From assembly GCA_945872425.1 (NCBI GenBank), contig CAMBZE010000003.1, forward strand, positions 938-64,937: DNA of 64,000 nucleotides, written 5' to 3'. A program made the position numbers and the translations under genes. Source of the stretch: Methylotenera oryzisoli (lineage in GTDB: Bacteria > Pseudomonadota > Gammaproteobacteria > Burkholderiales > Methylophilaceae). Below are positions 803 to 64,000 of the stretch, one piece after another; positions within the stretch are counted from its first letter, which is position 1, and every line of letters begins with the position of its first letter. The notes under the pieces were generated by a model, which saw only the letters and a list, made by a program, of their open reading frames with translations, was not told where the DNA came from and ran no database searches.

Positions 803-806
803 ATTC

Positions 807-1412: not shown

Positions 1413-1417
1413 TTTAT

Positions 1418-2428: not shown

Positions 2429-2467
2429 TCATCAATAATTAGAAGCACATTGCTCCCACAAACTATC

Positions 2468-3238: not shown

Positions 3239-3284
3239 CAGCTAATCAGTGAGATAATAAGGCACTATTTTTGGAGAAATTAAG

Positions 3285-3671: not shown

Positions 3672-3719
3672 TAGATTTTTATTTTGGGAAAATTGCCCGA
3701 GAGACCATTCGTAACCTTA

Positions 3720-3800
3720 ATGATGAAGCCCACCAAATACTCAATCTGCTGTGCGTCAATTGCTCAGCAGCTTCAATTTACCTCATGTCGCACCAAGTAA
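3720..3800 (+). CDS. Putative 26-aa Cys-containing leader peptide MMKPTKYSICCASIAQQLQFTSCRTK, in frame with acr3
   Basis: ATG 3720 to TAA 3800 read directly from the sequence; stop lies 3 nt before the acr3 ATG. RBS is weak and the ORF is below the track's length cutoff. Confidence 0.3.
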   Translation: MMKPTKYSICCASIAQQLQFTSCRTK

Positions 3801-3803
3801 ATC

Positions 3804-4862
3804 ATGACGACGAATACTAACTCTTCAGCAGATGCTCCAAAAATTGGTGCGTTTGAGCGCAACCTTACATGGTGGGTGTTGGCTTGCATCATCATTGGCA
3901 TCAGCCTGGGTAAGCTTAACCCTGCATTTTTTCAAGCGGCAGGCAGCATTAAAATTGCCGAAGTGAATTTGATTGTGGCCGTGTTGATTTGGCTGATGAT
4001 TATTCCTATGTTGCTAAAAATCGACTTCGGCGCCATGAGTGATGTATTGCAACATAGCAAAGGCATCGGCGTTACACTTTTTATCAACTGGGTTGTCAAG
4101 CCGTTCTCAATGGCGCTGCTGGCTTGGATATTCATCAGGCACTTATTTGCTGACTATCTGCCAATGGAACAGCTGGATAGTTATATTGCCGGGTTGATTT
4201 TACTTGCCGCCGCGCCATGTACAGCAATGGTGTTCGTATGGAGCGGACTATGTAATGGCGAGCCAAAATTCACGCTTTCTCAGGTCGCTCTCAATGACGC
4301 CATCATGTTATTTGCATTTGCACCTCTTGTAGCCTTGCTGCTCGGGCTATCCAGCATTACGGTTCCCTGGAATACTCTTTTCTTGTCTGTATTGCTGTTT
4401 ATTGTGGTGCCTGTGGTTGTCAGTCAGGTATGGCGCAGGCTGCTGTTATTAAAAGGTCAAAAGGCTTTAGATGAAACGCTTAAGCGCTTGCACCCAATTT
4501 CACTTACCGCATTATTGGTGACTTTGGTTTTGCTGTTTGGCTTTCAAGGGCAGCAGATACTGGCTCAGCCCATGATTATCGGTTTGCTGGCAGTGCCTAT
4601 TACCATTCAGGTTTATTTTAACGCCATGCTTGCTTATTGGCTTAACAAGCAACTGAAAGTTGCGCATTGTGTGGCCGGGCCATCCGCTTTGATAGGCGCT
4701 TCAAATTTCTTTGAATTGGCGGTTGCTACCGCTATTGCCTTGTTTGGTTTTAATTCAGGCGCGGCGCTAGCAACGGTTGTGGGGGTGTTAATAGAAGTGC
4801 CGGTGATGCTGTCGGTTGTATCCATTGTGAATCGCAGTCGTGGTTGGTATGAAGCCAATTAG
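3804..4862 (+). CDS. acr3: Arsenite efflux permease, Acr3 family
   Basis: FERNLTWWV, AAAPCTAMVFVWS (conserved Cys), GASNFFELAVA (conserved Glu), GVLIEVPVML; about 10 hydrophobic segments. Confidence 0.93.
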   Translation: MTTNTNSSADAPKIGAFERNLTWWVLACIIIGISLGKLNPAFFQAAGSIKIAEVNLIVAVLIWLMIIPMLLKIDFGAMSDVLQHSKGIGVTLFINWVVKPFSMALLAWIFIRHLFADYLPMEQLDSYIAGLILLAAAPCTAMVFVWSGLCNGEPKFTLSQVALNDAIMLFAFAPLVALLLGLSSITVPWNTLFLSVLLFIVVPVVVSQVWRRLLLLKGQKALDETLKRLHPISLTALLVTLVLLFGFQGQQILAQPMIIGLLAVPITIQVYFNAMLAYWLNKQLKVAHCVAGPSALIGASNFFELAVATAIALFGFNSGAALATVVGVLIEVPVMLSVVSIVNRSRGWYEAN

Positions 4863-4885
4863 CGTTTGAGAAAAAGAATGAATAA

Positions 4886-4910
4886 AAAAAGCACCCACAG
4901 GGTGCTTTTT
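4886..4910. terminator. Bidirectional intrinsic terminator between convergent acr3 and the PepSY gene
   Basis: aaaaagcaccc-aca-gggtgcttttt perfect hairpin with A/T tracts. Confidence 0.85.
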
Positions 4911-4931
4911 GTTGTTAGCATTAGGTAACGA

Positions 4932-5450
4932 TTACTCTATACCGATTTGATAGACTTCTTCCTCTGGTTCTTCTGCCAATTTACCAGTCACTGCATCAAC
5001 TTCCACTTCTACTTCCTTGCCATCAGCAGTTTTGATGTCGAATTCATAAGAAGGGTTGCCATTCGCTTCAACTGAGAACTCGGTTTCAATGATTTCCCCT
5101 GGTTGTTTAGCAAGGGCAGTCTTTTTGGCATCGTCTAGGCTAACCTTGGCTTTGCTCTTGAATGCAGCGTCATCCGCACTGGCAACTTCCATCTCTTCTT
5201 CTGTCACCTTGCCTGACTTGGCATCACACTCAACTTCCCACTCCTTGCCATCTTTACCTTTGATATCGAATTCATAAATGGGCTTACCATTTTCAACTTC
5301 CGCTTCGAGTGAGAGCACTTGGCCTGGGTGTTTTGCCAAAGCCGCTTTCATACAGGTTTCCATTTTTCCAGTATGAGCATGTCCACCGGCGTAAGCTAGT
5401 GTACTCATAAAAGCGGATGCCAAAGCTATTACCACTATTTTCTTGTTCAT
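4932..5450 (-). CDS. lanP: Periplasmic tandem-PepSY protein, lanpepsy (LanP)-like lanthanide-binding candidate
   Basis: Signal peptide (AYA-G); two PepSY repeats (YEFDIKGKDGKEWEVECDAKSG / YEFDIKTADGKEVEVEVDAVTG); about 36 Asp/Glu in the ~150-aa mature chain; C-terminus EEEVYQIGIE. The symbol is by resemblance only. Confidence 0.65.
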   Translation of the reverse strand: MNKKIVVIALASAFMSTLAYAGGHAHTGKMETCMKAALAKHPGQVLSLEAEVENGKPIYEFDIKGKDGKEWEVECDAKSGKVTEEEMEVASADDAAFKSKAKVSLDDAKKTALAKQPGEIIETEFSVEANGNPSYEFDIKTADGKEVEVEVDAVTGKLAEEPEEEVYQIGIE

Positions 5451-5635
5451 TTCAATCTCCTTTGTGACGTTAAAAATAAAAAATTCCCATCTGCTGCAAG
5501 CTTGATTATAATGAGATGTAAATTATTTTTCAAGAAATAACTTATTGATTTATATAGGAATTATGGTTTAATTCAGCCGAATAGTGGCTGTATATAACCA
5601 TATAAATTACCAATTAACTTTAAAGAAATGACGCT

Positions 5636-6277
5636 ATGGATAATGTGCCTGATATTGTTGACTCTGTACTCTACTTTTTAGCGGGATTATCTATCCTGAC
5701 TTGGACTATTTTGATAGTGAAGAGTTATGTGTTTTTGCGGCAAAAGCAAGCCAACATTGAGTTGCTATCCGGTTACGCTGGAGTCACACGTTTAACCAAA
5801 TTGCCTGAAGTGCTATACAAAGCAAAAGGGTCATTAAGCAGCCTTAGCAATAAGGCCATGCATGATCTTATTGCCTGGAACAAGGATGCTTCGCTGGACG
5901 TTAACGTGTTCCACGATATGTTGCGGCAATCATTGCGAGAAGAGCGCCATCGGCAACAAGTGCGCCTGGAAAGCGGTCTGGCTGTACTTGCGAGTATAGG
6001 CTCCACTTCGCCATTTATTGGCTTGTTCGGCACCGTATGGGGCATCATGCATGCGTTGAAAGGTATTTCTGCCTCTGGTTCAGCTGGCTTGGACGTAGTT
6101 GCTGGCCCGATTGGTGAAGCGCTCATTGCCACGGCTGCGGGTATCGCAGCGGCAATTCCCGCAGTGCTTGCCTATAATTATTTTTTACGTCAATCGCGCC
6201 TAGCTGCGGCAGATATGGATCACTTCTCCGAACGCTTACAAATACTGGCTAAACATTCAGATTACAAGGTAGATTAA
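5636..6277 (+). CDS. exbB: MotA/TolQ/ExbB proton channel
   Basis: LASIGSTSPFIGLFGTVWGIM, IGEALIATAAGIAAAIPAVLAYNYF. Confidence 0.92.
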   Translation: MDNVPDIVDSVLYFLAGLSILTWTILIVKSYVFLRQKQANIELLSGYAGVTRLTKLPEVLYKAKGSLSSLSNKAMHDLIAWNKDASLDVNVFHDMLRQSLREERHRQQVRLESGLAVLASIGSTSPFIGLFGTVWGIMHALKGISASGSAGLDVVAGPIGEALIATAAGIAAAIPAVLAYNYFLRQSRLAAADMDHFSERLQILAKHSDYKVD

Positions 6278-6278
6278 C

Positions 6279-6701
6279 ATGTCCATGGATAACCATGCTG
6301 AAGGCGGCATGATGAGCGAGATTAACGTAACACCGTTGGTGGATGTGATGTTGGTATTGCTCACGGTGTTCATTGTCACCGCGCCACTGCTCATGAATTC
6401 AGTGGCGGTCAAACTACCCAAAGTTGCAGCGACCACTTCATTGCAAAAAATGAATGACGTCAAAGTGAGTATTACCTCAGCGACTGAGGTATATATAGAT
6501 GAAACACAAATTGCCGCCTCAACTTTGGAAGCTGAGCTAAGAAAAAGAAATAATAAAGGGGATCTGCAAGTGCAAATCATGGCGGATGAAAGCGTAGCTT
6601 ATCGTGAAGTAGCTAAAGCCATGGCACAAATTCAGCGCGCAGGGGTGAGCAAGTTTACCTTTGTCATGTTGCCAGATAGCACTGTGCAATCTGCCCATTA
6701 G
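6279..6701 (+). CDS. exbD: ExbD/TolR biopolymer transport protein
   Basis: SEINVTPLVDVMLVLLTVFIVTAPL, IMADESVAY. Confidence 0.92.
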   Translation: MSMDNHAEGGMMSEINVTPLVDVMLVLLTVFIVTAPLLMNSVAVKLPKVAATTSLQKMNDVKVSITSATEVYIDETQIAASTLEAELRKRNNKGDLQVQIMADESVAYREVAKAMAQIQRAGVSKFTFVMLPDSTVQSAH

Positions 6702-6724
6702 TTATTGAATGGGCATAGGATTAA

Positions 6725-7507
6725 GTGAAGCTATCTCTGAATGAACAACTGCATAATGAGCGGCATGAGTCTGATTCATTTGTAATAAGTCTGGCTTTTG
6801 CTATTTCGTTAGCGCTGCACGTTAGCATTATACTTGCACTACCCTGGATTGAAGCTACCAAAGCAAAACCACCTATTACTATCGTTGCTGAACTTCTACA
6901 ACCCTCACCACCAATAGAAGTTCCAGCAGAACCTAAACCCGTTGAGCCCCCAGTTAAACCAGAGATTGTGAAGGTTGAACGCACACTTACACCTAAGCCA
7001 GACACGCCGGCGCCAAAACCTCAATCCGTAGCGCAACCAGTACTGGCGGCAGAGAATTTGGCACAAGCCCCCAGCGATTACAGCGTGCCTGATATACCAA
7101 AACCCACGATTGTGCCTAACGAGCCAACAGCACCTGCAGCACCGGAGTTGCCTTCAACATCCTTCACAAAGAATGAAATTATCCCAACAACATCCAACAC
7201 CACTTGGGATGACGATGATTTGTGGGGTGAATATGGAAATAATCTACAAAGACAGGTTGAGCGCAATAAACAATACCCAGCCATTGCGCTCAGGCGTGGC
7301 TGGCAGGGTTTGGCAAAAGTACTCGTTCATTTTTCCTCAGAAGGAAAAGCCATCAGTGTCACCATAGGAAAATCAGCGGGGAAGAAATTATTAGATGACC
7401 AAGCCATAGAAATGGTCCAAAAAAGCCTCAATGATTTACCAGTGCCCAATAAATTCAAAGACAGAGAATTCAAGTTAACTATTCCTGTGGATTTTAAGCT
7501 TGAATAG
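6725..7507 (+). CDS. tonB: Energy transducer TonB
   Basis: N-terminal TM with SLALH, Pro-rich spacer, YPAIALRRGWQG, LLDDQAIEMV, IPVDFKL. Confidence 0.9.
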   Translation: MKLSLNEQLHNERHESDSFVISLAFAISLALHVSIILALPWIEATKAKPPITIVAELLQPSPPIEVPAEPKPVEPPVKPEIVKVERTLTPKPDTPAPKPQSVAQPVLAAENLAQAPSDYSVPDIPKPTIVPNEPTAPAAPELPSTSFTKNEIIPTTSNTTWDDDDLWGEYGNNLQRQVERNKQYPAIALRRGWQGLAKVLVHFSSEGKAISVTIGKSAGKKLLDDQAIEMVQKSLNDLPVPNKFKDREFKLTIPVDFKLE

Positions 7508-7722
7508 ACATTTAGCGGATGCTGAAATGCTGCATTATTCTTCTGATTATGGTTGGATTAATCGTGTTGAAGAAACTTCAATTTTTAGGTTATAAGGTTT
7601 AAATATTTCCTTGATATCTTGCGCTTAATTTTCTGACGCGCCCGATTTGCTAGTCATTTATTGGTTTGATAAACCTTTTCTGCGATAATGTCGTTTTTGT
7701 TTTTTATTGAAAGTTAAAGCAA

Positions 7723-8034
7723 ATGGCGCAATTTGATCATGTCAGTGTAAAAAAGAAAGCCAATATTTATTTTGATGGTAAGTGTGTCAGCCATACTGTG
7801 ATGTTTCCAAATGGCACACGCAGCACTATTGGAGTCATTTTTCCTAGTACTCTTACGTTTAATACCGCTGCGCCTGAGTTGATGGAAATCAATGTGGGGG
7901 TATGTAAAGTGCGCCTTAAAGGTGAAGATGGCTGGAAAACATACAGTGCCGGCGAAAAGTTTACTGTGCCAGGAAACTCATCATTTGATATTGAGACAGT
8001 GGAAACATTAGACTACGTTTGTCACTTTGAATAA
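7723..8034 (+). CDS. ppnP: Pyrimidine/purine nucleoside phosphorylase (YaiE/DUF1255)
   Basis: [40 protein letters not shown]. Confidence 0.9.
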
Positions 8035-8037
8035 TGC

Positions 8038-8138
8038 TTTCGTTATAAATCGCGCGATAACCTTGTTGTCATCACTCGCCGTACTCTTTGTACTTGCTTC
8101 GCTCTGACGCTTCGTTCTCGCACAATTTCTTAACGAAA
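8038..8138. repeat. ~100-bp ERIC/MITE-like imperfect palindrome (family A)
   Basis: Arms tttcgttataaatcgcgcgataac / gttctcgcacaatttcttaacgaaa are imperfect reverse complements. The core gtac-N5-gtac resembles 37478-37582. Confidence 0.65.
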
Positions 8139-8174
8139 CCGAGTGGTTTCTGAAAGATTGTAAAAGGATAAAAT

Positions 8175-8669
8175 ATGCCTTCATTTGATATTAGTTCAGA
8201 AGTTGATATGGTCGCGTTGAAAAACGCGATTGATACCGCGGGTAAACAAATCACCAATCGTTATGACTTCAAGGGTAGTTCGGCCAAGGTCGAACTGAAT
8301 GAGAAAGACAGCGTCATTACCCTTTTTGGCGATAATGATTTTCAGCTAGATCAGGTGAAAGATATTTTGCTGCCTGCGATGGAAAAGAAAGAGCCGGATT
8401 CATCAAAACGTCTTGATCATAAAGATGTGCAGAAAATATCAGGCAATAAAGTAAAGCAGGAGATGAGAATCCGTGCCGGAATTGATAGTGATTTAGCTAA
8501 GCGTATCACCAAGTTGATTAAAGATTCCGGTATGAAAGTGCAGGCAAGTATTCAAGGTGACACGGTGCGCGTTAACGGTGCAAAGCGTGACGTGTTGCAG
8601 GATGCCATTGCCTTTGTAAAAAAAAATGTAACGGATTTTCCGCTGCAGTTTGGTAATTTTAGGGACTAA
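8175..8669 (+). CDS. yajQ: YajQ family nucleotide (c-di-GMP)-binding protein
   Basis: MPSFDISSEVD, NRYDFKG, KVQASIQGDTVRV.G.KRD.LQ, PLQFGNFRD. Confidence 0.95.
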   Translation: MPSFDISSEVDMVALKNAIDTAGKQITNRYDFKGSSAKVELNEKDSVITLFGDNDFQLDQVKDILLPAMEKKEPDSSKRLDHKDVQKISGNKVKQEMRIRAGIDSDLAKRITKLIKDSGMKVQASIQGDTVRVNGAKRDVLQDAIAFVKKNVTDFPLQFGNFRD

Positions 8670-8709
8670 GTAGGCGCGATATAAACGGCGCTTTATGAAG
8701 CAGAGAAAT

Positions 8710-10116
8710 ATGGCAAAAACGTTATACGATAAATTATTTGACAGTCACGTTGTGACCGAGGAAAACGGCACCGCATTGATTTATATTGACCGCCATCTGG
8801 TGCATGAAGTGACCAGTCCGCAAGCGTTTGAGGGGCTCAGGTTGGCTGGCCGTAAATTATGGCGCATCAATTCGGTGTTGGCTGTGCCTGACCATAATGT
8901 GCCGACCACAGACAGAAGCACAGGGGTGGCTGGTATTGCCGACCCGATTTCACGTTTGCAAGTGCAAACTTTGGATGAAAACTGTACGGATTTTGGTGTA
9001 ACAGAGTTCAAAATGAATGATGTGCGTCAGGGGATTGTGCATGTGATTGGCCCAGAGCAGGGCGCAACCTTGCCGGGGATGACTGTGGTTTGTGGGGACT
9101 CTCATACCAGTACGCACGGGGCTTTTGGGGCTTTGGCACACGGTATCGGTACGTCTGAAGTCGAGCACGTGATGGCGACGCAATGTTTGGTGCAAAAAAA
9201 ATCCAAAGCGATGTTAGTAACGGTTGAAGGCGCCTTACAAAAAGGCGTGACAGCTAAAGATATTGCATTGGCAATCATTGGCAAAATAGGCACAGCAGGG
9301 GGCACGGGTTACGCGATTGAGTTTTCTGGCGCTGCAATTCGCAATTTGAGCATGGAAGGTCGCATGACTTTGTGCAATATGGCGATTGAGGCCGGTGCAC
9401 GCGCAGGCATGGTGGCAGTTGATGACACGACAATTAACTATATTAAAGATCGTCCGTTTGCGCCTAAAGCTGAGCAATGGGGTGCGGCGGTTGCCTATTG
9501 GAGCACTTTGCATAGTGATGCGGGTGCAGTATTCGATGCTGTTGTGACTTTGCAAGCTGAAGATATTCAACCGCAAGTAACTTGGGGGACTTCACCGGAG
9601 ATGGTGGTTGGCGTTGACGGTAAAGTGCCAAGTTTGGATCTCGCGAAAAATGAGGTGCAACGTGGCGATTGGGAACGTGCCTATGCTTACATGGGTTTAA
9701 CACCTAATACCCCTATCAATCAAATCAGTATTGATAAAGTGTTTATCGGGTCTTGTACCAACTCACGTATTGAGGATTTGCGTGCAGCGGCTGAGGTTGC
9801 AAAAGGCCGGCATATTGCACCTAACGTAAAATTAGCGTTGGTAGTGCCAGGCTCTGGTTTGGTGAAGGCACAAGCTGAACAAGAAGGTTTAGACAAGATT
9901 TTTATAGAGGCAGGTTTTGAATGGCGCGAACCAGGTTGCTCTATGTGCTTAGCCATGAATGCCGATAGGCTTGAGCCAGGTGAGCGTTGCGCTTCAACTT
10001 CAAATCGTAATTTTGAGGGGCGCCAGGGTCAGGGTGGCCGTACGCATTTGGTTAGCCCGGAGATGGCGGCGGCGGCGGCAGTGGCTGGACATTTTGTTGA
10101 TGTAAGAAGTTTGTAA
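8710..10116 (+). CDS. leuC: 3-isopropylmalate dehydratase large subunit (ATG 8710 likely; ORF track 8695)
   Basis: [51 protein letters not shown]. Confidence 0.98.
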
Positions 10117-10146
10117 GTCAATATTAACTAAATTTAAGAAAACAAT

Positions 10147-10785
10147 ATGCAAGCTTTTACGCAATTGAAGGGTTTGGTAGCCCCGTTAGACCGCGCGAAT
10201 GTGGATACTGACGCTATCATTCCAAAACAGTTTTTGAAGTCTATTAAACGCAGCGGTTTTGGACCCAATGCGTTTGATGAGTGGCGCTATTTAGACCAAG
10301 GTGAGCCTGGTATGGATAATAGTAAGCGCCCATTAAACCCTGACTTTGTGCTGAATCAATCACGCTACCAAGGGGCGAGTGTGTTACTTGCACGTGAGAA
10401 CTTTGGCTGTGGTTCAAGTAGGGAGCACGCGCCATGGGCATTGGAAGATTATGGCTTCAAAGTGGTGATTGCACCCAGTTTTGCTGATATTTTCTTCAAC
10501 AATTGCTTCAAAAATGGCATGTTGCCTATTGTATTGGCTGCGAAAGCTGTGGACGCTTTGTTTAATCAAGTTGTAGCCAATGAAGGTTACAAACTGGATG
10601 TTAACTTGAATGCTCAAACAGTGACTACGCCTGCCGGTGATGTCTATCCATTTGAGGTGGATGCTTTCCGCAAACACTGCTTGTTAAATGGTTTGGATGA
10701 CATTGGTTTAACCATGCAGCAACAAGACAAAATTAAGGCGTTTGAGCAAAAGCATCAGCAGTCTCAGCCATGGCTCTTTTTGTAA
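10147..10785 (+). CDS. leuD: 3-isopropylmalate dehydratase small subunit
   Basis: [38 protein letters not shown]. Confidence 0.98.
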
Positions 10786-10824
10786 GTCAGTTTTAATTAA
10801 AATCAAGTTTAAGAAAGTCAGTTC

Positions 10825-11895
10825 ATGAAAATTGCAGTGTTGCCAGGTGATGGCATTGGTCCGGAAATTGTTGCACAAGCTGTTAAAGTTTTAACCGCGC
10901 TAAAATTAGACATCAACATGACTGAGGCGCCTATTGGTGGCGCAGGTTACGAGGCTGCGGGTGACCCATTGCCGGATGCAACATTAAAACTCGCTAAGGA
11001 TGCAGATGCTGTTTTATTGGGCGCGGTGGGTGATTGGAAGTATGACAAATTAGAGCGTCATTTACGTCCTGAGCGTGGTTTGTTGCGTATTCGCAAAGAA
11101 CTTAATTTGTTTGCTAACTTGCGCCCGGCTTTGCTTTATCCTGAATTGGCGGCGGCCTCTACCTTGAAACCAGAAGTGGTTTCTGGCCTGGATATTATGA
11201 TTGTGCGCGAGCTCACTGGTGATATCTATTTCGGTCAGCCCCGTGGCATTTCTACCTTGGAGAACGGCGAGCGTGAAGGCATCAACACCATGCGCTATAA
11301 CGAGTCTGAGATTCGTCGTATTGGTCGAGTCGCGTTTGATATCGCCATGAAGCGGCGTGTCAATGGTCAAAAAGCAAAAGTATGTTCAGTGGATAAAGCC
11401 AACGTGCTGGAAACCACTGAATTATGGCGTCAAGTCATGATTGAACTGTCCGCTGAATATCCAGAAGTTGAATTGAGCCACATGTATGTCGATAACGCTG
11501 CGATGCAACTGATTCGAGCACCCAAGCAGTTTGATGTCATGGTAACAGGTAACATCTTCGGTGATATTTTGTCGGATGAAGCCTCTATGCTCACCGGTTC
11601 TATCGGTATGTTGCCTTCGGCATCGCTGGATGCAAATAACAAAGGCATGTATGAGCCTAGCCACGGCTCTGCGCCAGATATCGCGGGTAAAGACGTTGCT
11701 AATCCATTGGCAACGATTCTTTCTGTCGCCATGATGTTGCGTTACACCTTTGGCGACGAAGCTAATGCACAACGCGTTGAAAATGCAGTGAAAAAAGCGC
11801 TGGCACTTGGGTTTAGAACGGCTGACATTTGGACAGAAGGTACCAATAAAGTTGGATGTGCTGCGATGGGCGACGCTGTAGTGGCGGCATTGTAA
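10825..11895 (+). CDS. leuB: 3-isopropylmalate dehydrogenase
   Basis: [44 protein letters not shown]. Confidence 0.98.
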
Positions 11896-11906
11896 ATTTA
11901 AGAAAT

Positions 11907-11938
11907 GTAGGGTGGGTTAGGCGAAGCCGTAGCTCACC
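11907..11938 (+). repeat. GTAG-family REP element (single copy)
   Basis: GTAG followed by the hairpin GGTGGGTTA-GGC-GAA-GCC-G-TAGCTCACC (fully paired if G.T wobbles are allowed). Confidence 0.75.
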
Positions 11939-11974
11939 ATGAGTTAAATATGAACTAAATATGATGGGCGATAT

Positions 11975-13087
11975 ATGTTAAAAGTAGGTTTTGTCGGTTG
12001 GCGTGGCATGGTGGGTTCAGTCCTCATGCAACGCATGTTGGAAGAAAATGATTTTGCGCTTATCGAGCCACAATTCTTCACTACATCGCAAGTGGGCGGT
12101 AATGGCCCGAATGTGGGCAAAGAAACGCCTGCATTGCTGGATGCCAAAGATATTAACGCACTCAAAGCGATGGATGCGATTGTGTCATGCCAGGGCGGAG
12201 ACTACACCACTGAAATATTCCCAAAGTTACGTAATTCTGGTTGGAACGGTCATTGGATTGACGCTGCCTCAACTTTACGCATGGAAAAAGATGCGGTCAT
12301 TATTCTAGATCCTGTGAATATGCATGTGATACAGAATGCACTACATAATGGCGGCAAGAACTGGGTCGGTGGTAACTGTACAGTTTCATTGATGCTGATG
12401 GCCTTAAATGGTTTATTCAAGGCAGACCTGGTCGAGTGGGCAACCTCCATGACTTATCAGGCGGCTTCTGGTGCAGGCGCACAAAACATGCGCGAGCTAC
12501 TTAAGCAAATGGGTGAAGCGCACCGCGTGGCCAGCGACCTTTTAAAAGACCCGGCCTCTGCGATTTTAGATATTGACCGTGAAGTGGCAGGCACGCTGCG
12601 TGATGACGGTTTTCCAACAGCCCATTTTGGTGTGCCATTAGCCGGTAGTTTGATTCCATGGATTGATAAAGACTTGGGCAATGGGCAAAGTAAAGAGGAA
12701 TGGAAGGGTGGCGTTGAAACTAACAAAATTTTAGGGCGCGAAACTAATCCGATCTTGATAGATGGCCTTTGTGTGCGTATTGGCGCAATGCGCTGTCATA
12801 GCCAGGCCTTAACGATCAAGCTGAAGAAAAATGTACCGCTAGATGAAATAAATCAGATGTTGTCTGAAGCGAATCAATGGGCGAAAGTTGTGCCAAATGA
12901 GCGTGAGTCTAGTATGCGTGAACTCACGCCAGCTGCGGTGACCGGGACTTTAATCACCCCAGTGGGTAGAATCCGTAAGCTAAATATGGGTAATGATTAT
13001 TTATCTGCCTTTACTGTAGGTGACCAGCTGCTATGGGGTGCGGCAGAGCCGTTGCGTCGTATGTTGCGAATTTTAATAGAAAAATAA
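11975..13087 (+). CDS. asd: Aspartate-semialdehyde dehydrogenase
   Basis: [47 protein letters not shown]. Confidence 0.98.
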
Positions 13088-13250
13088 TTTGTAAAGTTCT
13101 TCAGTTGTTGTGAGGCTGACAACAGTCAAAGTCGCCAGCCAGATAGCAGTTGAAAGGTGTGTGCATTATGAGCTTGCATCCCTAACTATTAGATGTTAGT
13201 TTTATACTGAAAATATTGGATTGATTATTGGATGGACTAAAGGTAGTAAT

Positions 13251-15035
13251 GTGCATAAATCAAAAATAAAGCAATTTTCATTGGTAGCCTGCTTGGCATT
13301 TATGCCGTTTTTTGGTTTTGCCGCAGACTTAGGCGAGTTAAATGTAACCTCAAGTTTAGGTGAGCCACTAAAAGCTGAAGTGGAGCTTCTGTCAGTCACT
13401 CCAGAAGAGCTTTCAACGCTGGTTGCCGTCATTGCTTCTGAAGAAGCGTATGTAGCTCAAGGCATTGCCCGTCTAGGAATCCATAACGATATTAGAGTGG
13501 ATTTGACTAAAAATGCAGATGGCTTACCTGTATTGACGTTGTATTCCAGTCAGCCTATTAGTGATCCGTATCTGGACATGTTAATTCAGGTAAATTGGGC
13601 ATCGGGTCGCATACTGCGTGAATATGCTGTTTTGTTAGATTCACCAGAATATAAACAATCAATCAGTGAAGCGTCATTAGCACCGATTTCTCCTCCATCT
13701 GTAGCCAGCAATGCAAATAAAGATGAAGCCTCTGGCGAGGTAAATCCCGATACCTTTGATGGCGAGCTTGCAAAACAAGTTGGTAATCAAACTGATGAGC
13801 AACAAGACAAATATGATACAACTGCAGATACAGCGCAGTTAACCACAGTGCGCAGCGACACCTTGATCTCAATTGCAAGAAAAATGCAAGTCGATGGCGT
13901 GAGCTTGGATCAAATGCTCGTGGCTTTGTTTAAAAATAATAAAGAAGCATTTTCTGATGGCAATATGAACCGACTTAAAGTCGGTAAAATTATTAAGGCG
14001 CCTTCCAAAGACAGTTTCATGGCAATTGACGCACAGCAGGCTAAGCAGTCTGTGAAAGTGCACACTGCAAACTGGAATGAATATCGTAGAGCTCTAGCAG
14101 ATACTGTGGCTAAAATTTCTGCTGGCGTAGAGAGTGAGCAAAAACAATCGGCATCTGGAAAAATTGTTGCCGCTGAGGATAATGCTACCTTGGTTAAATC
14201 AGGTTCACGGGATGTTGTAAAACTATCTGCCGGTGAGAAAGATTTTGGAAAAGGCAGCAAAGAGAGTGGTCAAGAGTTTGACGCTAAAATTTCAGCTCTG
14301 CAAGAAGAAGCTATCGCACGTGAAAAGGCATTGAAGGAATCGCAAGAGCGTACGACTGTTTTAGAGAAACAAATTGAGGATATGCAAAAATTATTGGCTT
14401 TGAAAAACCAAGCGATGACAGATTTGCAAAAAAAGGTTGAAAATCCAACTAGCACAGCAGCTGAAATTGAAAAAATGCCACCTATTGTAAAAACTCCCGT
14501 TGAGTTTGTATTAGAGGCATCATTCATTGAAGGTCTGTTAGATAATGTAGATATGGCATTGCTTGGGGGCACTGCCGGTGTTACATTGCTAGGCATCGGC
14601 TGGATGTTCTTACGTAATAAGCGTAGAAGAACCCTAGATAGCTTTAAGCACGGTACGGTAACTTCTGGCGATTTGCGTGCTAACACCATATTTGGCAATA
14701 CTACTGATAATGCAAGTGCCTCAGACACTACATTTGATTTGCCACTAATGAATGAACTAGATACAAAGGTTTTTGATTTTTCTGCAATTAACCTAGATTT
14801 GGGCAAGGACGAGGATCAAGCAGTTGTGGGGCAATCATTAAATGATTTATCTATTGAACAGTCAGTGCAGATTGCACCTGAACATCAGGATATTGAAATT
14901 AAATTTGATTTAGTGGCTGCGTATATCGATATGGATGATAAAGATGGCGCGCGTGAATTGCTGGATGAAGTGATTAAAGAAGGCGGTCCTCAGCAACGGC
15001 AACGCGCCGAGCAGTTGTTAGCAAGTTTGGCATAA
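13251..15035 (+). CDS. fimV: FimV/HubP polar landmark protein (GTG 13251 likely; ORF track 13221)
   Basis: LGELNVTSSLGEPLKAEV, LysM-like region (QMLVALFKNN..AF..GNMNRLKVG), coiled coil, TM segment, C-terminal DLVAAYIDMDDKDGARELLDEV; asd-fimV-truA synteny. Confidence 0.9.
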   Translation: MHKSKIKQFSLVACLAFMPFFGFAADLGELNVTSSLGEPLKAEVELLSVTPEELSTLVAVIASEEAYVAQGIARLGIHNDIRVDLTKNADGLPVLTLYSSQPISDPYLDMLIQVNWASGRILREYAVLLDSPEYKQSISEASLAPISPPSVASNANKDEASGEVNPDTFDGELAKQVGNQTDEQQDKYDTTADTAQLTTVRSDTLISIARKMQVDGVSLDQMLVALFKNNKEAFSDGNMNRLKVGKIIKAPSKDSFMAIDAQQAKQSVKVHTANWNEYRRALADTVAKISAGVESEQKQSASGKIVAAEDNATLVKSGSRDVVKLSAGEKDFGKGSKESGQEFDAKISALQEEAIAREKALKESQERTTVLEKQIEDMQKLLALKNQAMTDLQKKVENPTSTAAEIEKMPPIVKTPVEFVLEASFIEGLLDNVDMALLGGTAGVTLLGIGWMFLRNKRRRTLDSFKHGTVTSGDLRANTIFGNTTDNASASDTTFDLPLMNELDTKVFDFSAINLDLGKDEDQAVVGQSLNDLSIEQSVQIAPEHQDIEIKFDLVAAYIDMDDKDGARELLDEVIKEGGPQQRQRAEQLLASLA

Positions 15036-57884: not shown

Positions 57885-59366
57885 TCACGTCAGTTTCAGT
57901 GTGTTAAGTGTCTGTGTGCGCACTTGTTTGAGTAGATTTGCATCGTCAATCAGTGACTCACCAAATGATGGAATCGCAGTTTTAATTTTCTGCTGCCAGT
58001 CATTGTGTTCCATACGGTCCTTGAAACAGCGTTTCATTACATCTAGCATGGCTTGAACCGATACTGAGGCGCCTGGCGAGGCGCCTAGCAATGCCGCGAT
58101 ACTGCCGTCACTAGAAGTCACGATTTCAGTGCCAAACTCCAGTTTTCCACCTTTTTCATCACATTGCTTGATGATTTGCACACGGTTACCAGCCTCAGCG
58201 AGTACCCATTCTGAATCTTTGGCAGCAGGGTAATATGCACGCAAGGTATTCATGCGCGCTTTATGTTTTTGCAGGGACTCGCCGATTAAATAGCGCGTGA
58301 GATCCATATTGTTTTTGCCTACAGCTAACATTGACAATACATTGTTAGCTTTAACTGATTGTAGCAAATCGAGTTTTGAGCCTTGCTTTAGAAATTTGGT
58401 GGTAAAGCCGGCGTAGGGACCAAATAAAAGGGCGGGTTTGCCTTCAATTAAGCGCGTGTCCAAATGTGGCACAGACATTGGCGGCGCGCCAATCGCCGCT
58501 TTGCCATAGACTTTGGCTAAGTGTGTTTTTATTACGGCATCATTCTTACATACCAGCCATTGACCACTGACCGGAAAGCCGCCATAGCCTTTACTTTCCG
58601 GGATATTGGTTTTTTGTAATAAAGGCAGGGCACCGCCGCCAGCCCCTAAAAATACAAACTTAGCCTGCAGTGTTTTTGGATGTTTGGATATGGAGTCTTT
58701 TACTGCCACATGCCAGATGCCGCTTTTATCTTGTTTTAGTGTTTTTACCTGGTGATTCAACAGTAATTTGAAGTTGGCATTTTGCTGCATACTCGTGACC
58801 AAGTGACGTGTTAGTGTGCCAAAATCAACGTCTGTGCCATGGTCAACGCGTGTGGCGGCAATACGGGCAGTGGCGTCTTGGCCATCCATAACAAGCGGCA
58901 TCCAATCCCTCAATGTGGCGGCGTCTTCACTGTATTGCATCGCTTCAAATAATGGATGCCGACTTAACAGCGTATGGCGTTTTTTTAGAAAAGCAATGTC
59001 ATCATCACCCCAAACCACGCTTAAATGCGGTGTTTTATTGATAAAATTTTGTGGGGCGGGTAGCTTGTGTTTATCGACCAGATACGACCAATATTGTAGT
59101 GAAACCTCGAAAGCGGCATTGATGCTGAGTGCGCGTTTGATGTCTATATCACCATTCTCAGCTTGTGGTGTGTAATTCAGTTCGCAATAACCAGCGTGCC
59201 CGGTGCCTGCATTATTCCAACTGCTGGAGCTTTCGTGAGCGATTTCACCCAAACGCTCAACCATGACAATGGACAAGCTTGGATCAACAAGTTGCAGCAA
59301 TGAACCTAATGTGGCGCTCATAATGCCGCCACCCACTAATAACACATCCACTTTGTTTTCAGTCAT
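57885..59366 (-). CDS. mqo: Malate:quinone oxidoreductase
   Basis: LVGGGIMSATLG, NNAGTGHAGYCELNYTP, GTDVDFG, PPMSVPHLDTR, LLGASPGAS. Confidence 0.96.
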   Translation of the reverse strand: MTENKVDVLLVGGGIMSATLGSLLQLVDPSLSIVMVERLGEIAHESSSSWNNAGTGHAGYCELNYTPQAENGDIDIKRALSINAAFEVSLQYWSYLVDKHKLPAPQNFINKTPHLSVVWGDDDIAFLKKRHTLLSRHPLFEAMQYSEDAATLRDWMPLVMDGQDATARIAATRVDHGTDVDFGTLTRHLVTSMQQNANFKLLLNHQVKTLKQDKSGIWHVAVKDSISKHPKTLQAKFVFLGAGGGALPLLQKTNIPESKGYGGFPVSGQWLVCKNDAVIKTHLAKVYGKAAIGAPPMSVPHLDTRLIEGKPALLFGPYAGFTTKFLKQGSKLDLLQSVKANNVLSMLAVGKNNMDLTRYLIGESLQKHKARMNTLRAYYPAAKDSEWVLAEAGNRVQIIKQCDEKGGKLEFGTEIVTSSDGSIAALLGASPGASVSVQAMLDVMKRCFKDRMEHNDWQQKIKTAIPSFGESLIDDANLLKQVRTQTLNTLKLT

Positions 59367-59411: not shown

Positions 59412-61073
59412 CTAATCTTGTTTAACGTTTTTTTCTGCTGCTTGCGGATTAGCAAGCAGGACCTCTATATCTGTTTTTGTTAGCGTACTATTCGGCTGGG
59501 ATAAATCATTGCTCGTTGTATGCGCGCTATGAAAATCGTGACAAGACATGCAACCGCTGGCGATGCGCTTATGTTTAGGGCGATTGCCGGAGTGACAGAG
59601 CAAGCAAGATTTCCGATCCGGCATGGCGACATCGGCACTGCTTTCCGAGTTTTCAACCTGATGACAGGATGTGCATTGCTGCGTGCGGTGCAAGGCATGG
59701 TTGAATCGCGCTTTACTGAACCAGTCGGTGTTGATTAACAAGGGTGTGATGCGCCATGGGAGTGAATCGCCTTCTTTGGAATCAACAACATCATGGCAGT
59801 ATGCGCATCCTGTTGATTTTAATGTTTCCGAATAGCGGGTAAATTCTTTAGGGGCGTAAAGTTTTAATGTGTTCATTACGTTTTGCTCTGCACCATGCGG
59901 AACGCTGATTCTTGACCCCGCCGGACCAACTTTTAGCTCGCTGGCATGGCACGCAAGACAGTCGCGCTTGAATGATAAAGGCTTGAAGCGCATTTCTTTA
60001 CCTTCTGGCTGGTGGCACATCGTACATGACATTTCGCGCACATCGGAAAGCCCATTCGGCCCTTGAACTTTACCGGTATGCTGGTAGTGAGAAAATTTCA
60101 GGCCAGATTTTTCAATCAAACGCGCTTGATCTGTCTGCGGAACTCTAATGCTACCTTCATCATGGCTGGTCTTGAATGTTAATCTGAAGTCAGGGTGATC
60201 ATGGTCAAAATCATGAATATCTGACAGTGATGTTTTCGCATTCACAGACTTGATATTGCCGTGACATTTAATACACATGCCATCATCTTGCCGTGTGAGC
60301 GGAAAAGGAGATTTGTGCTCACGGTGACATTCTGCACACTGCGTGCCGCCTACAAATTTACGTTTGGCAACAAAAGCATGATGTTGCAATGCTTTATCTT
60401 CAATGTGAGGCGCAGTGTCGCGATGGCATTGCATACAGGCTTTGTCAGAAACGGGTTTAGTCAGCGTTTGGTGGCAATTGATGCATTGCGACCCAAAATG
60501 TCTATGGGCATTGGATACGTGTCCGGGACTCCATACCCGGTCAAAACCGAATGGTAGTTGTGCTATAGCCTCACGCAATTGCGGAACCAGGTTTTGTGCA
60601 ACGGGTAGGGCCACGAAGAACAGTGCGATCAATGCCACCATCCACAGAGACAGATGTCGTTTAAAAGCGGAAGCACCAGGCAGTGGCTCATGTGTGCGTG
60701 ATTTGATGTTTTGAAAGTCATCCGGCAGGCGGTTAGCAAGTGCCAGGGAGATTGCCAGATTGACATCGGGCGGCGCCGGTTCTACCGTTAATCGATAGGG
60801 GCCAACCATGACTTCTGTACCTGGAGTGAGCGGCACGTTTTGTTTTGTAGAAAACTCGACTTCCAGTTCGCCATTGATTGTGACTATATGTATTTCATCA
60901 TCGTGCATCCGCTTGATAACAGCGTGATGCATGGCAATACGAGGGTCTGGCAAATGAACCGTACATTCAGCGCCACGACCGAATGTGATTTCTTCAGCGA
61001 CTAAGGTACGATAACTGCGAACGGGCAAGCCGCGTGAGTTATGCGTAATTTTAATTAATAAACAATTGATCAT
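59412..61073 (-). CDS. FHA domain - single TM - decaheme cytochrome c (uncharacterised)
   Basis: FHA-like FGRGAECTVHLPDPRIAMHHA; TM SLWMVALIALFFVALPVA; ten CxxCH motifs: CINCH, CMQCH, CAECH, CIKCH, CTMCH, CLACH, CAYCH, CTSCH, CLLCH, CMSCH. Confidence 0.9.
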   Translation of the reverse strand: MINCLLIKITHNSRGLPVRSYRTLVAEEITFGRGAECTVHLPDPRIAMHHAVIKRMHDDEIHIVTINGELEVEFSTKQNVPLTPGTEVMVGPYRLTVEPAPPDVNLAISLALANRLPDDFQNIKSRTHEPLPGASAFKRHLSLWMVALIALFFVALPVAQNLVPQLREAIAQLPFGFDRVWSPGHVSNAHRHFGSQCINCHQTLTKPVSDKACMQCHRDTAPHIEDKALQHHAFVAKRKFVGGTQCAECHREHKSPFPLTRQDDGMCIKCHGNIKSVNAKTSLSDIHDFDHDHPDFRLTFKTSHDEGSIRVPQTDQARLIEKSGLKFSHYQHTGKVQGPNGLSDVREMSCTMCHQPEGKEMRFKPLSFKRDCLACHASELKVGPAGSRISVPHGAEQNVMNTLKLYAPKEFTRYSETLKSTGCAYCHDVVDSKEGDSLPWRITPLLINTDWFSKARFNHALHRTQQCTSCHQVENSESSADVAMPDRKSCLLCHSGNRPKHKRIASGCMSCHDFHSAHTTSNDLSQPNSTLTKTDIEVLLANPQAAEKNVKQD

Positions 61074-61076
61074 GTA

Positions 61077-61907
61077 TTACCAATAAGCAAAAACGGCAAA
61101 TATGTGCGCCACCATGGCCGCGAGCAGGGCAATGGTAAAAGGCACGTGAAAATATAGCCAGAAACCCAAACGTGCGCGGTACATTAAATCTTGCCTTGCG
61201 CGTTTGACCAGAGACTCACGACGCACCATGATGGAATAGAGTTCACGGTAAAGTTTGCGCTGTTCCATAGATAAATCATTGCCCATTGCAGTGAGTTGTT
61301 GCACGGCGATTGCCGATGGGCAGTTTGGCTGAAATCCTCTGAGCTGCTCAAGCAATCCAATACCAATTGAAGTTTCACGACAAGCCCGTGCAACGACATG
61401 GTTGATGTCATCCGGCATCACCAGCGCAATTTGACGCGCTAACTTATCAGCTTCTGCAATGCGTAACAGCAAGCCATCCAGATTATCTTCCCCCATATTC
61501 TCGGTCATTCGGCGTGGGTAAACCATATAGGTATAGTTGCCAAAAAATCCGCTGATGACCACGACCAACAATAGACCATAAGCAAGCGTGTGGATATTGA
61601 ACCCAAAATGAAACCCACTGTGCAGGGTGACAATTACTGTGAGCGCCGTGCCTAAATAAATATGCGCCGACAACCAGCCCTGTGTGGAACCCGAGCTGCG
61701 GTAGCGACGTTTGCGTACGCCATACCATGCCATCCACAATACCATCATTGCTGAAATCGAGCCCAGGGTATAACCAAGCCAGCTGCCGCCATAATGACCT
61801 ACTGCTGGCTCAAACAGCAGATATAAAACAAAGGCGATAAGAATCGCGATAGTCGCTAACTTGAGGTAACGATAGTGTTTATAGTCAAAAATATTACTGC
61901 GTTGCAT
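61077..61907 (-). CDS. Membrane protein with ferric-reductase-like bis-His pairs (putative di-heme b)
   Basis: About 5 hydrophobic helices; two His pairs 14 residues apart (AHIYLGTALTVIVTLH and FHVPFTIALLAAMVAH). Confidence 0.7.
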   Translation of the reverse strand: MQRSNIFDYKHYRYLKLATIAILIAFVLYLLFEPAVGHYGGSWLGYTLGSISAMMVLWMAWYGVRKRRYRSSGSTQGWLSAHIYLGTALTVIVTLHSGFHFGFNIHTLAYGLLLVVVISGFFGNYTYMVYPRRMTENMGEDNLDGLLLRIAEADKLARQIALVMPDDINHVVARACRETSIGIGLLEQLRGFQPNCPSAIAVQQLTAMGNDLSMEQRKLYRELYSIMVRRESLVKRARQDLMYRARLGFWLYFHVPFTIALLAAMVAHIFAVFAYW

Positions 61908-61921
61908 TCTGCTTATTCTTT

Positions 61922-64000
61922 CTAATGTTCGTCAGAACCAAGTAAAGCGGTTTCACCAGGGGTGCCGCTGGCGTAACCCAGAAGCTCCTCAGGGTTCACG
62001 CGTAGCGCAGCGCCTACCGGGCAAGCGCGCACACACATAGGACCTCCGCTAAGGTCCTTACACATATCGCATTTAACTGCTACTTTACGGTCTTCGGCAG
62101 AGGGCAAGGGTTTAGGGGTGATGTCAAGCAACATCTGCCATAAGCTGCGTTCCGGTTGATCTTGAATCACGGCCATCTGAATCACATCATAAGGGCAGTT
62201 TTGCTGGCAATTGCCGCAGCCGATACAGCTGTCGTCAATGTAAACTTCGCCGTGCGGCGCACGATGAATTGCATCAGGCGGGCAATCCTTCATGCAATGT
62301 GGATGCTCGCAATGGCGGCACGATGTCGGCACGCGAATATTAGCGAAAATGGGGCCAGTGTCACGATCTAGGCGCGAAGCCCCGCCATGCGTGTCAGCAC
62401 AAGCCTGTTCACAATGATTACAACGTATGCATAAAGATTCATCAATCAGCAGCACATCAGTCGCTTCACCAACGCCTTGTTGAATGAGAAATGAAATTAA
62501 ATTGGATTGCGTAGATTGACCGGTAACAGCACCACCGCCGTCCGCAGCGCTTTCCAACTGTTGGCGTTTCTCCTGCTCTTGTAAATGCTGAAGATAACGC
62601 GCATCCAGCTCACTGCGAATTTCCGGATTACGCGCAATGATGTCGCGCATACGATCAGCTTTAATCAACACCGCATCGGTGGCCACTGCCGCGCGTACCG
62701 TGGCGTAACGCGGCTCGCCGGAAACAAGTGACATTTCCCCAACATAGTGACCTGCTGCCACATAGAACAACACGACCTCTCTGCCACCAATCATGCGGGA
62801 TACGGTGACGGAGCCACTTTGAATGAGGTAAAGCCCATCCGCTTCATCGCCTTCGTGAAAAAAATCCTCGCCGGCGCTGAAGCTTTTAAGCTCAGCATGA
62901 CTAGCCAAATCGTTCAGGTCTTCTTCACTCAGTGAAAGCCCGATACACACGTGAACAACGCTCTTAATGGCGACTTCATTGAGCATACGGCGCATGGACT
63001 GCACGGAACCAATGAGTTTTTGCATCACTCGCCGTGGGGTTTCAATCAATACGCAGTGGGTACGGGCGCGTACGGTTCCTGCACGGCGACGGCCAGAAAC
63101 GAGTGCCAGCTCACCAAAAAAATCGCCCGTCTTGAGTTGTGCGTCTGGTACATCATCTACGTCAATTAAAACATCCAGCTCGCCTTCAACGATAGAAAAG
63201 AAAGTGGTGCTGTAATCATTGCGCTTGAAGATGATGTCTCCAGGCTTTGGTAGAAGGATGTTGCTTTCCAGTACCAGTTCGCGCAGTTGTAGCGTATTGA
63301 GCATCGCTAATAGCGGCACATTTTTTTGAATTTTCGTCAAAACATCATCAATACCACGGTCTGTGCAAAAGTCAGCGAATTTCTCACGCAGCAAAGCGGT
63401 ATCGGCAGGCTCCACAGCATTACCGAGTATGTACTCAATGACCTCATAACCCTGATTGATGCCTTGCTTAATGAGAGGGTAGCCAGCCAACGCGCCAATA
63501 ATATAGAGCCCGGGTACGTTGGATTCATAACTTGTGGAAAGCAGGGGCAGCGCACCTAAGTCAGACGTTGGAAAAGCAACGCCAAAGTTTTCCAGTAGTG
63601 GGCGTGACGGTAGGGCGCCAAGCCGTGCGATTATCCGGTGGCAAGGAATGCGTTCAGCCCCATTCGGCGTGTTGGCGTAAAGGGTGATGGGAAACTCGCC
63701 ATGGGGATTTTGCTCAATAGATTGTGGTTTTGTTTGCAGCAACCAGTCTATAGCACCTTTTTGGCGCGCATCCATGAGCTGACTCAAGTTGCTATCTTTA
63801 AGGTTACTAAAATCCTCGGCACGATTCAGTATCATCACCTGATTTCGACCAGTCAGTGCCAATGCGTTTTCTACGCCACTATCGCCACCGCCAACAATGA
63901 CAATGGTTTCATTCTGATAGTCTTTTGGATCATCAAGTTGGTATTGCACCTGCGGTAAATCCCCGCCCGGTATTTCCAGCTTACGCAAATTGCCTTGCAC
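61922..64000 (-). CDS. TrxR/FNR-type FAD-NAD(P)H oxidoreductase + 2 cNMP-binding domains + 4x[4Fe-4S] domain; 5'-truncated by the window edge
   Basis: IVIVGGGDSGVENA and YIIGALAG; FGELALVSGRRRAGTV and VGEMSLVSGEPRYATV; CIRCNHCEQAC, CRHCEHPHCMKDCP, CIGCGNCQQNCP, CDMC..PMCVRACP. Confidence 0.9.
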   Translation of the reverse strand: MQGNLRKLEIPGGDLPQVQYQLDDPKDYQNETIVIVGGGDSGVENALALTGRNQVMILNRAEDFSNLKDSNLSQLMDARQKGAIDWLLQTKPQSIEQNPHGEFPITLYANTPNGAERIPCHRIIARLGALPSRPLLENFGVAFPTSDLGALPLLSTSYESNVPGLYIIGALAGYPLIKQGINQGYEVIEYILGNAVEPADTALLREKFADFCTDRGIDDVLTKIQKNVPLLAMLNTLQLRELVLESNILLPKPGDIIFKRNDYSTTFFSIVEGELDVLIDVDDVPDAQLKTGDFFGELALVSGRRRAGTVRARTHCVLIETPRRVMQKLIGSVQSMRRMLNEVAIKSVVHVCIGLSLSEEDLNDLASHAELKSFSAGEDFFHEGDEADGLYLIQSGSVTVSRMIGGREVVLFYVAAGHYVGEMSLVSGEPRYATVRAAVATDAVLIKADRMRDIIARNPEIRSELDARYLQHLQEQEKRQQLESAADGGGAVTGQSTQSNLISFLIQQGVGEATDVLLIDESLCIRCNHCEQACADTHGGASRLDRDTGPIFANIRVPTSCRHCEHPHCMKDCPPDAIHRAPHGEVYIDDSCIGCGNCQQNCPYDVIQMAVIQDQPERSLWQMLLDITPKPLPSAEDRKVAVKCDMCKDLSGGPMCVRACPVGAALRVNPEELLGYASGTPGETALLGSDEH

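Follow-up and report, generated by a model that had tools for sequence, protein, structure and literature searches.

In a 64,000-nucleotide stretch of the Methylotenera oryzisoli genome (hereafter the window; contig CAMBZE010000003.1, positions 938 to 64,937 of the forward strand), a gene for 553 amino acids encodes a membrane protein with an FHA domain in the cytoplasm, one transmembrane (TM) helix and ten haems outside. This cytochrome gene ends a compact operon of three genes on the reverse strand, in the order flavoprotein, 14-base gap, five-TM inner-membrane protein (IMP), 3-base gap, cytochrome. We lean towards regarding the three products as subunits of one inner-membrane electron-transfer module, a wire gated by cyclic nucleoside monophosphate (cNMP), in which electrons from NAD(P)H would run through flavin adenine dinucleotide (FAD), iron–sulphur (FeS) clusters and two b haems to ten c haems. 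The cytochrome is probably one arm of this electron path across the inner membrane, and not a receptor. The features concerned, numbered by their positions in the window, are the following.

59412..61073, reverse strand: FHA-TM-decahaem cytochrome c, 553 aa, ATG start (open reading frame (ORF) list; Pfam FHA and cytochrome c3/c7 families)
60744..61073, reverse strand: cytoplasmic FHA domain, residues 1-110 of the cytochrome (AlphaFold2 (AF2) model, Foldseek, residue mapping)
60588..60674, reverse strand: single TM helix, residues 134-162, preceded by K138/R139 in line with the positive-inside rule (AF2 model)
59526..60506, reverse strand: periplasmic decahaem domain, residues 190-516 (ten CxxCH motifs and ten invariant distal His)
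61077..61907, reverse strand: five-TM IMP, 276 aa, predicted dihaem cytochrome b (invariant motif columns, weak PF01292 similarity)
61922..64000, reverse strand: cytoplasmic flavoprotein, 818 aa, whose gene runs 378 bases past the window end (full ORF at L002 4859..7315; Pfam, NCBIfam and PDB relatives)

The ten CxxCH motifs of the cytochrome start at C197, C213, C246 and C267, at C350 and C372, at C423, and at C467, C490 and C508, and none of the ten varies in an alignment of 101 homologues with 26-79% identity. The periplasmic His residues that are invariant in the same alignment outside these motifs number exactly ten (H190, 223, 253, 293, 329, 332, 393, 459, 462 and 515), which matches the need of ten bis-His haems. 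A first reading of the DNA, made from its letters alone and called the original prediction below, had counted the motifs in groups of 4, 2, 1 and 3 and had pointed to many extra His as potential distal ligands; the grouping is borne out and candidates for the ligands can now be named. An exhaustive search (E<1e-30) recovered 462 clusters at 50% identity, most of which align from residues 1-25 onward, so that the FHA part belongs to the family match, and motifs kept across hundreds of such clusters are no chance pattern. Among representatives of the 50%-identity clusters, 142 of 151 have ten CxxCH motifs and nine of 151 have nine. The 298 close homologues are mostly from Methylotenera and are labelled either 'cytochrome c3 family protein' or 'FHA domain-containing protein'. 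Through its decahaem domain, the family profile also matches PDB sequences of the GSU1996 dodecahaem and of nine-haem and 16-haem cytochromes. Named families of multihaem cytochromes gave no assignment: the MtrA/DmsE decahaem model (TIGR03508) reached 30.4 bits against a cut-off of 192.2 and matched in one local stretch only, the scores for GSU2203 and QrcA were far under their cut-offs, and no NapC/NirT family appeared among the Pfam and NCBIfam matches at E<=0.1 of this protein, which has ten haems and an FHA domain before its helix. In the orthologue alignments of two genomes (G114 and G093) an in-frame TAA is read through, and in a third (G199) the cytochrome is split in two; such in-frame stops, of which the flavoprotein orthologues also have examples (below), may be pseudogenes, assembly errors or alignments that extend past the gene start.

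The N-terminus scored 23.0 bits with the Pfam FHA model (PF00498; cut-off 20.7) and 26.6 bits in a six-frame search of the genome, and the family profile found the FHA domains of FhaA, GarA, Rv1747 and EmbR in the PDB with E-values of 2e-7 to 1e-5 over residues 23-102. The AF2 model of the cytochrome, built from the 101-sequence alignment, has a mean pLDDT of 88.9, and residues 1-110, at 96-98, form the eleven-strand beta-sandwich of the FHA fold. All 50 of the PDB matches listed by Foldseek (52 had E <= 0.001) are FHA domains, the best being those of GarA and OdhI, and also the FHA domain of FhaA, with TMt ~0.7 (up to 0.73) and a probability of 1.0. The Pfam family Yop-YscD_cpl matched the N-terminus weakly (E 5e-4, 20.6 bits against a cut-off of 33.2). 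The FHA-like domain of the original prediction, and the structure prediction that it had proposed as a check, thus came out as anticipated. The same is true of the basic residues that it placed before a single TM helix, namely K138 and R139, the latter kept in at least 90% of the 101 sequences. An N-terminal signal peptide is absent from the cytochrome; because haem attachment needs the periplasm, the single helix must run with its N-terminus inside and its C-terminus outside, as had also been proposed.

The full set of phosphothreonine (pThr)-contacting residues (Arg, Ser and Asn, with the structural Gly and His) is not present in this FHA domain. Gly32, Arg33 and His50 are retained and Ala47 aligns with the Ser of GarA 'SrrHA', which agrees with the earlier observation that Gly-Arg and His are kept and that Ala replaces the pThr-binding Ser. 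Among about 142 representatives, the canonical Ser position is occupied by Ala in 67 and by Ser in 10, the Asn position is not conserved, and Gly32 is invariant; Arg33, which contacts the phosphate in canonical FHA domains, is retained in 135 of 141 members. Mean identity among orthologues is 0.66 in the FHA domain, 0.75 in the following linker and 0.65 in the haem domain, so that the FHA domain and linker are as conserved as the haem domain, as is expected of a fixed protein interface. The FHA domains of GarA and OdhI bind enzymes independently of phosphate. The domain is probably a degenerate, phosphate-independent docking domain, and a fixed, phosphate-independent protein interface is the simplest reading of its conservation and of the distribution of kinases described below.

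The IMP carries the motifs W78xxxH82x13H96 on TM3, S119GxxG123 on TM4 and W250xxxH254x13H268 on TM5. In 29 sequences with 35-88% identity, W78, H82, H96, G120, G123, W250, H254 and H268 are invariant and S119 is kept in at least 90%, so that the protein has the five TM helices, the WX3HX13H motifs on TM3 and TM5 and the SGXXG motif on TM4 that mark the IMPs of the PCC3/PCC4 type. The AF2 model (pLDDT 77) places four membrane helices in residues 13-129 and makes the fifth the end of a long helix (214-275); a 115-aa helical insert between TM4 and TM5 (pLDDT 83-94) faces the cytoplasm. The positive-inside rule orients TM3 and TM5 alike, from inside to outside, and so puts His82 and His254 at one depth of the membrane and His96 and His268 at the other. 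This geometry is the signature of a dihaem cytochrome b, and two stacked b haems are predicted from it.

The third subunit, the 818-aa flavoprotein, lacks a signal peptide and combines three kinds of module. Its flavin module is of the TrxR/YpdA type (FAD and NAD(P)H) with two GxGxxG motifs; the redox-active CxxC of TrxR-like enzymes is absent, the only Cys residues before residue 650 being C246, C338, C442 and C478. Sixteen Cys form four ferredoxin-type [4Fe-4S] motifs. Each of the two cNMP-binding domains has an intact phosphate-binding cassette that keeps its Glu and Arg (FGELAL...RRAGTV and VGEMSL...PRYATV). Four matches to cNMP-binding domains were found in the genome: these two (window ~62627-63247), one on contig C12 and one on contig C17. 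The solved relatives of the flavoprotein are YpdA/Bdr and the TrxR-type ferredoxin-NADP reductase, which are the closest for the flavin module, the tandem cyclic nucleotide-binding (CNB) domains of PKA/PKG and the HycB-type polyferredoxins; in NCBI its relatives go by the name thioredoxin-reductase-like flavoprotein. An in-frame TGA is read through in the flavoprotein orthologues of three Burkholderiales metagenome-assembled genomes (MAGs; G202, G203 and G206).

The three genes belong together well beyond this genome. Their order is the same in every Methylophilaceae locus with enough flanking sequence (78 genome loci were examined), the trio is syntenic in distant metagenomic members whose cytochromes are 38%, 31%, 28% and 27% identical, and the adjacency of the cytochrome to the IMP and to the [4Fe-4S]/cNMP protein is that expected of FHA-anchored multihaem cytochromes. 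The cytochrome occurs in 27 of 201 sampled Methylophilaceae genomes and in 16 of the 18 from its own genus, and the same operon is found in the cultured Methylotenera mobilis 13 and M. oryzisoli La3113. After the IMP-cytochrome pair of Arenimonas and Burkholderiales come an HbpS-like protein, one of ~615 aa that lacks annotation, and a decahaem protein of ~1260 aa. A signal peptide and the C-terminal ending ...LTF/LTY make the ~615-aa protein a probable outer-membrane barrel. That some of these lineages do without the flavoprotein was ruled out: a full-length orthologue with 53-56% identity lies ~3 kb beyond the locus end in all six Arenimonas and Burkholderiales genomes checked, which in Arenimonas is the end of the cluster.

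The Arenimonas cluster has seven genes and was observed in a MAG contig of 129,572 bp (L094, positions 378-14380) and also in L083 and L089. The order in the one that was read through is IMP, FHA-decahaem cytochrome, HbpS-like repeat protein (673 aa), barrel-like protein (622 aa, no Pfam match, ending in ...LLMTF), 1263-aa decahaem protein, 444-aa tetrahaem protein and flavoprotein. It looks like an uncharacterised envelope-spanning conduit, and the HbpS-like and barrel proteins have not been described before in the context of FHA-cytochrome clusters. Judged from such clusters, the trio is the conserved core and the outer-membrane parts are optional. The M. oryzisoli genome studied here (1.49 Mb, 98.3% complete) contains no homologue of the HbpS-like protein, of the ~615-aa barrel or of the large multihaem cytochrome (MHC), and the FHA-cytochrome is its only c-type cytochrome with at least three haem motifs.

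Building on the domains, motifs, fold, topology and gene linkage described above, and inferring from them the loading of the cofactors, the formation of a complex, the direction of flow and the partner of the FHA domain, we propose the following path. NAD(P)H would reduce the FAD of the flavoprotein, and the electrons would pass along its four [4Fe-4S] clusters to the b haem on the cytoplasmic side of the IMP (His82/His254), then across the membrane to the b haem on the periplasmic side (His96/His268) and on to the ten bis-His c haems. The gate of this flow would be the pair of cNMP-binding domains in the flavoprotein. The role of the FHA domain would be to dock the cytochrome, with its single membrane pass, to the 115-aa insert of the IMP, to the flavoprotein, or to both, much as the FHA-like domain of YscD/PrgH, a protein of like topology, does in type III secretion systems (T3SS). 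The original prediction had suggested testing the flavoprotein as a partner for the FHA domain; for the 818-aa protein upstream this is plausible, and if malate:quinone oxidoreductase (Mqo, below) was meant, only some Methylotenera have it next to the cytochrome. Elsewhere, the module would deliver its electrons to an outer-membrane barrel and further multihaem cytochromes. Since the outer-membrane parts are absent from the present genome, the acceptors in this streamlined methylotroph must be periplasmic, and might include soluble cytochromes c and the cbb3/aa3 oxidases. An outward flow is favoured because NAD(P)H lies ~0.5 V below c-type cytochromes and because the membrane potential helps electrons outward; the reverse flow would be uphill on both counts. 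A more specific version is possible, and we hold it only tentatively: the three proteins would form a NOX-like NAD(P)H:cytochrome c oxidoreductase that is split into separate chains and does without quinones, with a cyclic nucleotide or some other CNB ligand as its gate and with the FHA domain as a phosphate-free clamp between the cytochrome and its partners.

Several points count against the proposed module. The IMP scored 28.1 bits with PF01292 of the cytochrome b561 type, below the cut-off of 30.1 (26 of the 29 members match it weakly, and seven of 29 match the ferric-reductase family PF01794), a Foldseek search of its model against the PDB returned nothing under E 0.1, and a sequence search of the PDB gave noise only; without a fold match and with Pfam scores under the cut-off, it is the motifs that speak for b haem binding. 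A search of the genome for nucleotide cyclases of class III (PF00211) and class I (PF01295) found none, so that the supposed cNMP signal lacks a source there. The direction of flow is argued from thermodynamics only. The retention of Arg33 may leave room for binding of phospho- or other acidic groups. Finally, a quinone site on the b subunit, as both earlier papers on such proteins assume, would make the flavoprotein dispensable for the path.

This last point leads to the main rival, a quinol-linked b/c module, in which the IMP and cytochrome act as a quinol dehydrogenase that connects quinol with partners in the periplasm or outside the cell, in one direction or the other, and the flavoprotein is an accessory or regulatory feeder. 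A dihaem b is joined to a multihaem c domain in CbcL of Geobacter, and the weak similarity of the IMP is to PF01292, the family of the quinone-reactive b subunits of hydrogenases and formate dehydrogenases. A quinol link has been proposed, too, for the IMP of PCC3/PCC4 (PMC5566968) and for the nonahaem cytochrome of Ferrigenium that is compared below. However, every examined locus with enough flank, even where it had first seemed otherwise, couples the pair to a flavoprotein that has a four-cluster wire, which is hard to explain if quinol is the donor, and the cytochrome has no NapC/NirT family match; we therefore regard a quinol dehydrogenase as unlikely. The idea of a redox sensor, in which the periplasmic haems, by their redox or ligand state, would signal through the helix to an FHA domain that binds or releases a cytoplasmic partner, is less probable again. 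A single-pass protein with its N-terminus inside and a protein-binding module there does resemble a sensor, the FHA domain is as conserved as the haem domain, and the neighbouring flavoprotein has regulatory cNMP-binding domains. Yet ten packed bis-His haems with invariant ligands are typical of wires, sensors usually having one or two haems; the obligate neighbours provide a full cofactor chain through the membrane; elsewhere the gene clusters include a probable porin and larger cytochromes; and the neighbourhood has no conserved transcription factor or kinase. Since the trio gives a complete chain of cofactors, since a single helix cannot carry electrons, and since the FHA domain has no output domain, a receptor role is less likely. 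The original prediction of a receptor-like cytochrome with a perhaps phospho-independent interaction therefore divides: the independence from phosphate is supported by the rarity of Ser at the contact position and by kinase-free carriers, and the receptor loses ground to the obligate IMP and flavoprotein partners.

One Pkinase gene and one FHA domain, that of the cytochrome, are all that the genome has of either kind. The kinase, the only one of the Hanks type, has 564 aa, in which a PP2C phosphatase is fused to a Ser/Thr kinase and a TM helix lies at the C-terminus; it is encoded outside the window at C62:3865-5556 (L003 673-2367, forward strand), on a contig other than that of the cytochrome and directly after the gene of a NarK-like transporter of the major facilitator superfamily, and about half of the sampled Methylophilaceae genomes have it, with 60-86% identity. 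The one-to-one count invites a phospho-switch, with the kinase fusion phosphorylating a Thr of the b subunit or the flavoprotein and the FHA domain binding the pThr to turn the conduit on or off. In its favour are also the conservation of Gly32, Arg33 and His50 and, in the cytoplasmic part of the b subunit, an invariant T179 and a nearly invariant T135 with Met, Leu or Ile at +3. Against this, the phosphate-contacting Ser is Ala here and the Asn position varies, the kinase sits beside a transporter gene on another contig, and the two genes are phyletically uncoupled: the kinase occurs in 106 of 201 Methylophilaceae genomes, many of them without the cytochrome, and the cytochrome in 27. Moreover, we could not find a Pkinase match at E<=0.001 in three cytochrome carriers (G157, a single 1.8-Mb contig, G164 and G012), each 99% complete. 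These kinase-free carriers make the FHA domain probably phospho-independent, the PP2C-Ser/Thr kinase was rejected as its partner on these phyletic grounds, and a phospho-switch appears about as improbable as a sensor.

A few further features of the region may be recorded.

57885-59366, reverse strand: Mqo (869 bits to NF003613), separated from the cytochrome by a 45-base gap on its downstream side

The mqo gene adjoins the cytochrome in ~20 Methylotenera loci and in none of the distant loci, and Mqo was ruled out as a functional partner because the adjacency is limited to some Methylotenera. A scan of the operon region for promoters and terminators found sites no more numerous than in shuffled sequence, and so has no bearing on the transcription units. 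Just past the window end, divergent from the operon, three ORFs of 253, 221 and 291 aa (L002 7474-9797, forward strand) look by eye like the ModA, ModB and ModC proteins of a molybdate ATP-binding cassette transporter.

If the proposed module is real, electrons have a route across a bacterial inner membrane without quinones, made of familiar parts newly combined, and an FHA domain serves for the first time as a fixed subunit interface of a respiratory complex. In the more specific, NOX-like version, methylotrophs of the ribulose monophosphate cycle such as this one would pass NAD(P)H electrons directly to periplasmic cytochromes and terminal oxidases, skipping complex I and bc1, and the same module would feed an outer-membrane conduit in other bacteria. 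The family is large and is present in methylotrophs, iron oxidisers, Arenimonas and Burkholderiales, so that what it does matters for redox balancing and extracellular electron transfer across many habitats. The window holds the minimal version, three genes without outer-membrane parts that encode the sole multihaem cytochrome of a 1.49-Mb genome, and the presence of the operon in cultured Methylotenera makes this unusual and testable system approachable by experiment.

The proposed path has well-known counterparts. In the NOX/FRE enzymes, NAD(P)H reduces a flavin, which passes electrons to two stacked b haems held by His pairs that are 13 residues apart in NOX. In NarH-NarI and FdnH-FdnI, a ferredoxin subunit with four clusters is docked on a dihaem b subunit. 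The logic of the trio is similar to that of NOX/FRE and of NarGHI/FdnGHI, whereas its parts are separate polypeptides, its b subunit has five TM helices instead of six, and its outlet is a decahaem cytochrome c. In YscD, the inner-ring protein of the T3SS (elsewhere PrgH or EscD), an FHA-like domain in the cytoplasm is followed by one TM helix and by periplasmic domains, and the FHA-like domain, which lacks the pThr-binding residues, is a docking module. The cytochrome shares this topology with YscD; its periplasmic part, however, is unrelated, and there is no secretion system here.

Proteins of the present kind have been met in three earlier studies. In Ferrigenium straubiae, a membrane-associated nonahaem cytochrome c with a cytosolic FHA domain ('NHC') was described with its function unknown, and FHA-multihaem fusions were stated to be previously unreported (bioRxiv 10.64898/2026.01.22.701106, section 6.3.2). 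Going by that description, NHC is like the Methylotenera cytochrome in its cytoplasmic FHA domain, its one TM helix, its periplasmic multihaem domain and its lack of a signal peptide, and it likewise has a five-TM protein and a [4Fe-4S] protein as neighbours; the number of haem motifs differs (nine in NHC, ten here). Its authors saw no redox motif in the five-TM protein, whereas the IMP studied here has two invariant HX13H pairs, and they propose an inward flow from Fe(II) to quinone. The present host is a small methylotroph without outer-membrane cytochromes. Elbon et al. named a set of genes in marine bacteria ptdABCDEFG and stated that their function is completely unknown; PtdE is a cNMP-binding and 4Fe-4S protein, PtdF a ferric-reductase-like membrane protein and PtdG a decahaem protein (bioRxiv 10.1101/2023.11.21.568154). 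By description, PtdE-PtdF-PtdG are the same three kinds of protein, adjacent as in our trio, and the Methylotenera cytochrome has the architecture of the NHC/PtdG type (cytoplasmic FHA, one TM helix, nine or ten periplasmic CxxCH). The ptd clusters differ by an additional pentahaem protein, a porin, a separate FAD/NAD(P) oxidoreductase and a tetrahaem protein; the present locus has no porin, and its flavin module forms one polypeptide with the cNMP/FeS part. An FHA domain goes unmentioned in the ptd preprint.

The membrane partner, finally, resembles the five-TM IMP that He et al. (2017) described in PCC3/PCC4 and in porin-less 'MHC + IMP + redox protein' clusters, for which a dihaem b coupled to quinone was proposed, and whose IMP groups share motifs without overall sequence similarity (PMC5566968). 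Like that of PCC3/PCC4, the IMP of M. oryzisoli has five TM helices with WX3HX13H on TM3 and TM5 and SGXXG on TM4, and in some of those clusters an Fe-S (PF13247) gene adjoins; in contrast to the decahaem-FHA protein, the periplasmic cytochromes of PCC3 have ~21 haems and no reported FHA domain. In short, two preprints had already noted the architecture (as NHC and as ptdEFG), and He et al. (2017) the membrane partner, so that the family is recognised, if uncharacterised; what the present analysis adds to it are the ten invariant distal His, kinase-free genomes among the carriers of the cytochrome, the linkage to the flavoprotein even where this had seemed absent, and a minimal version without a porin.

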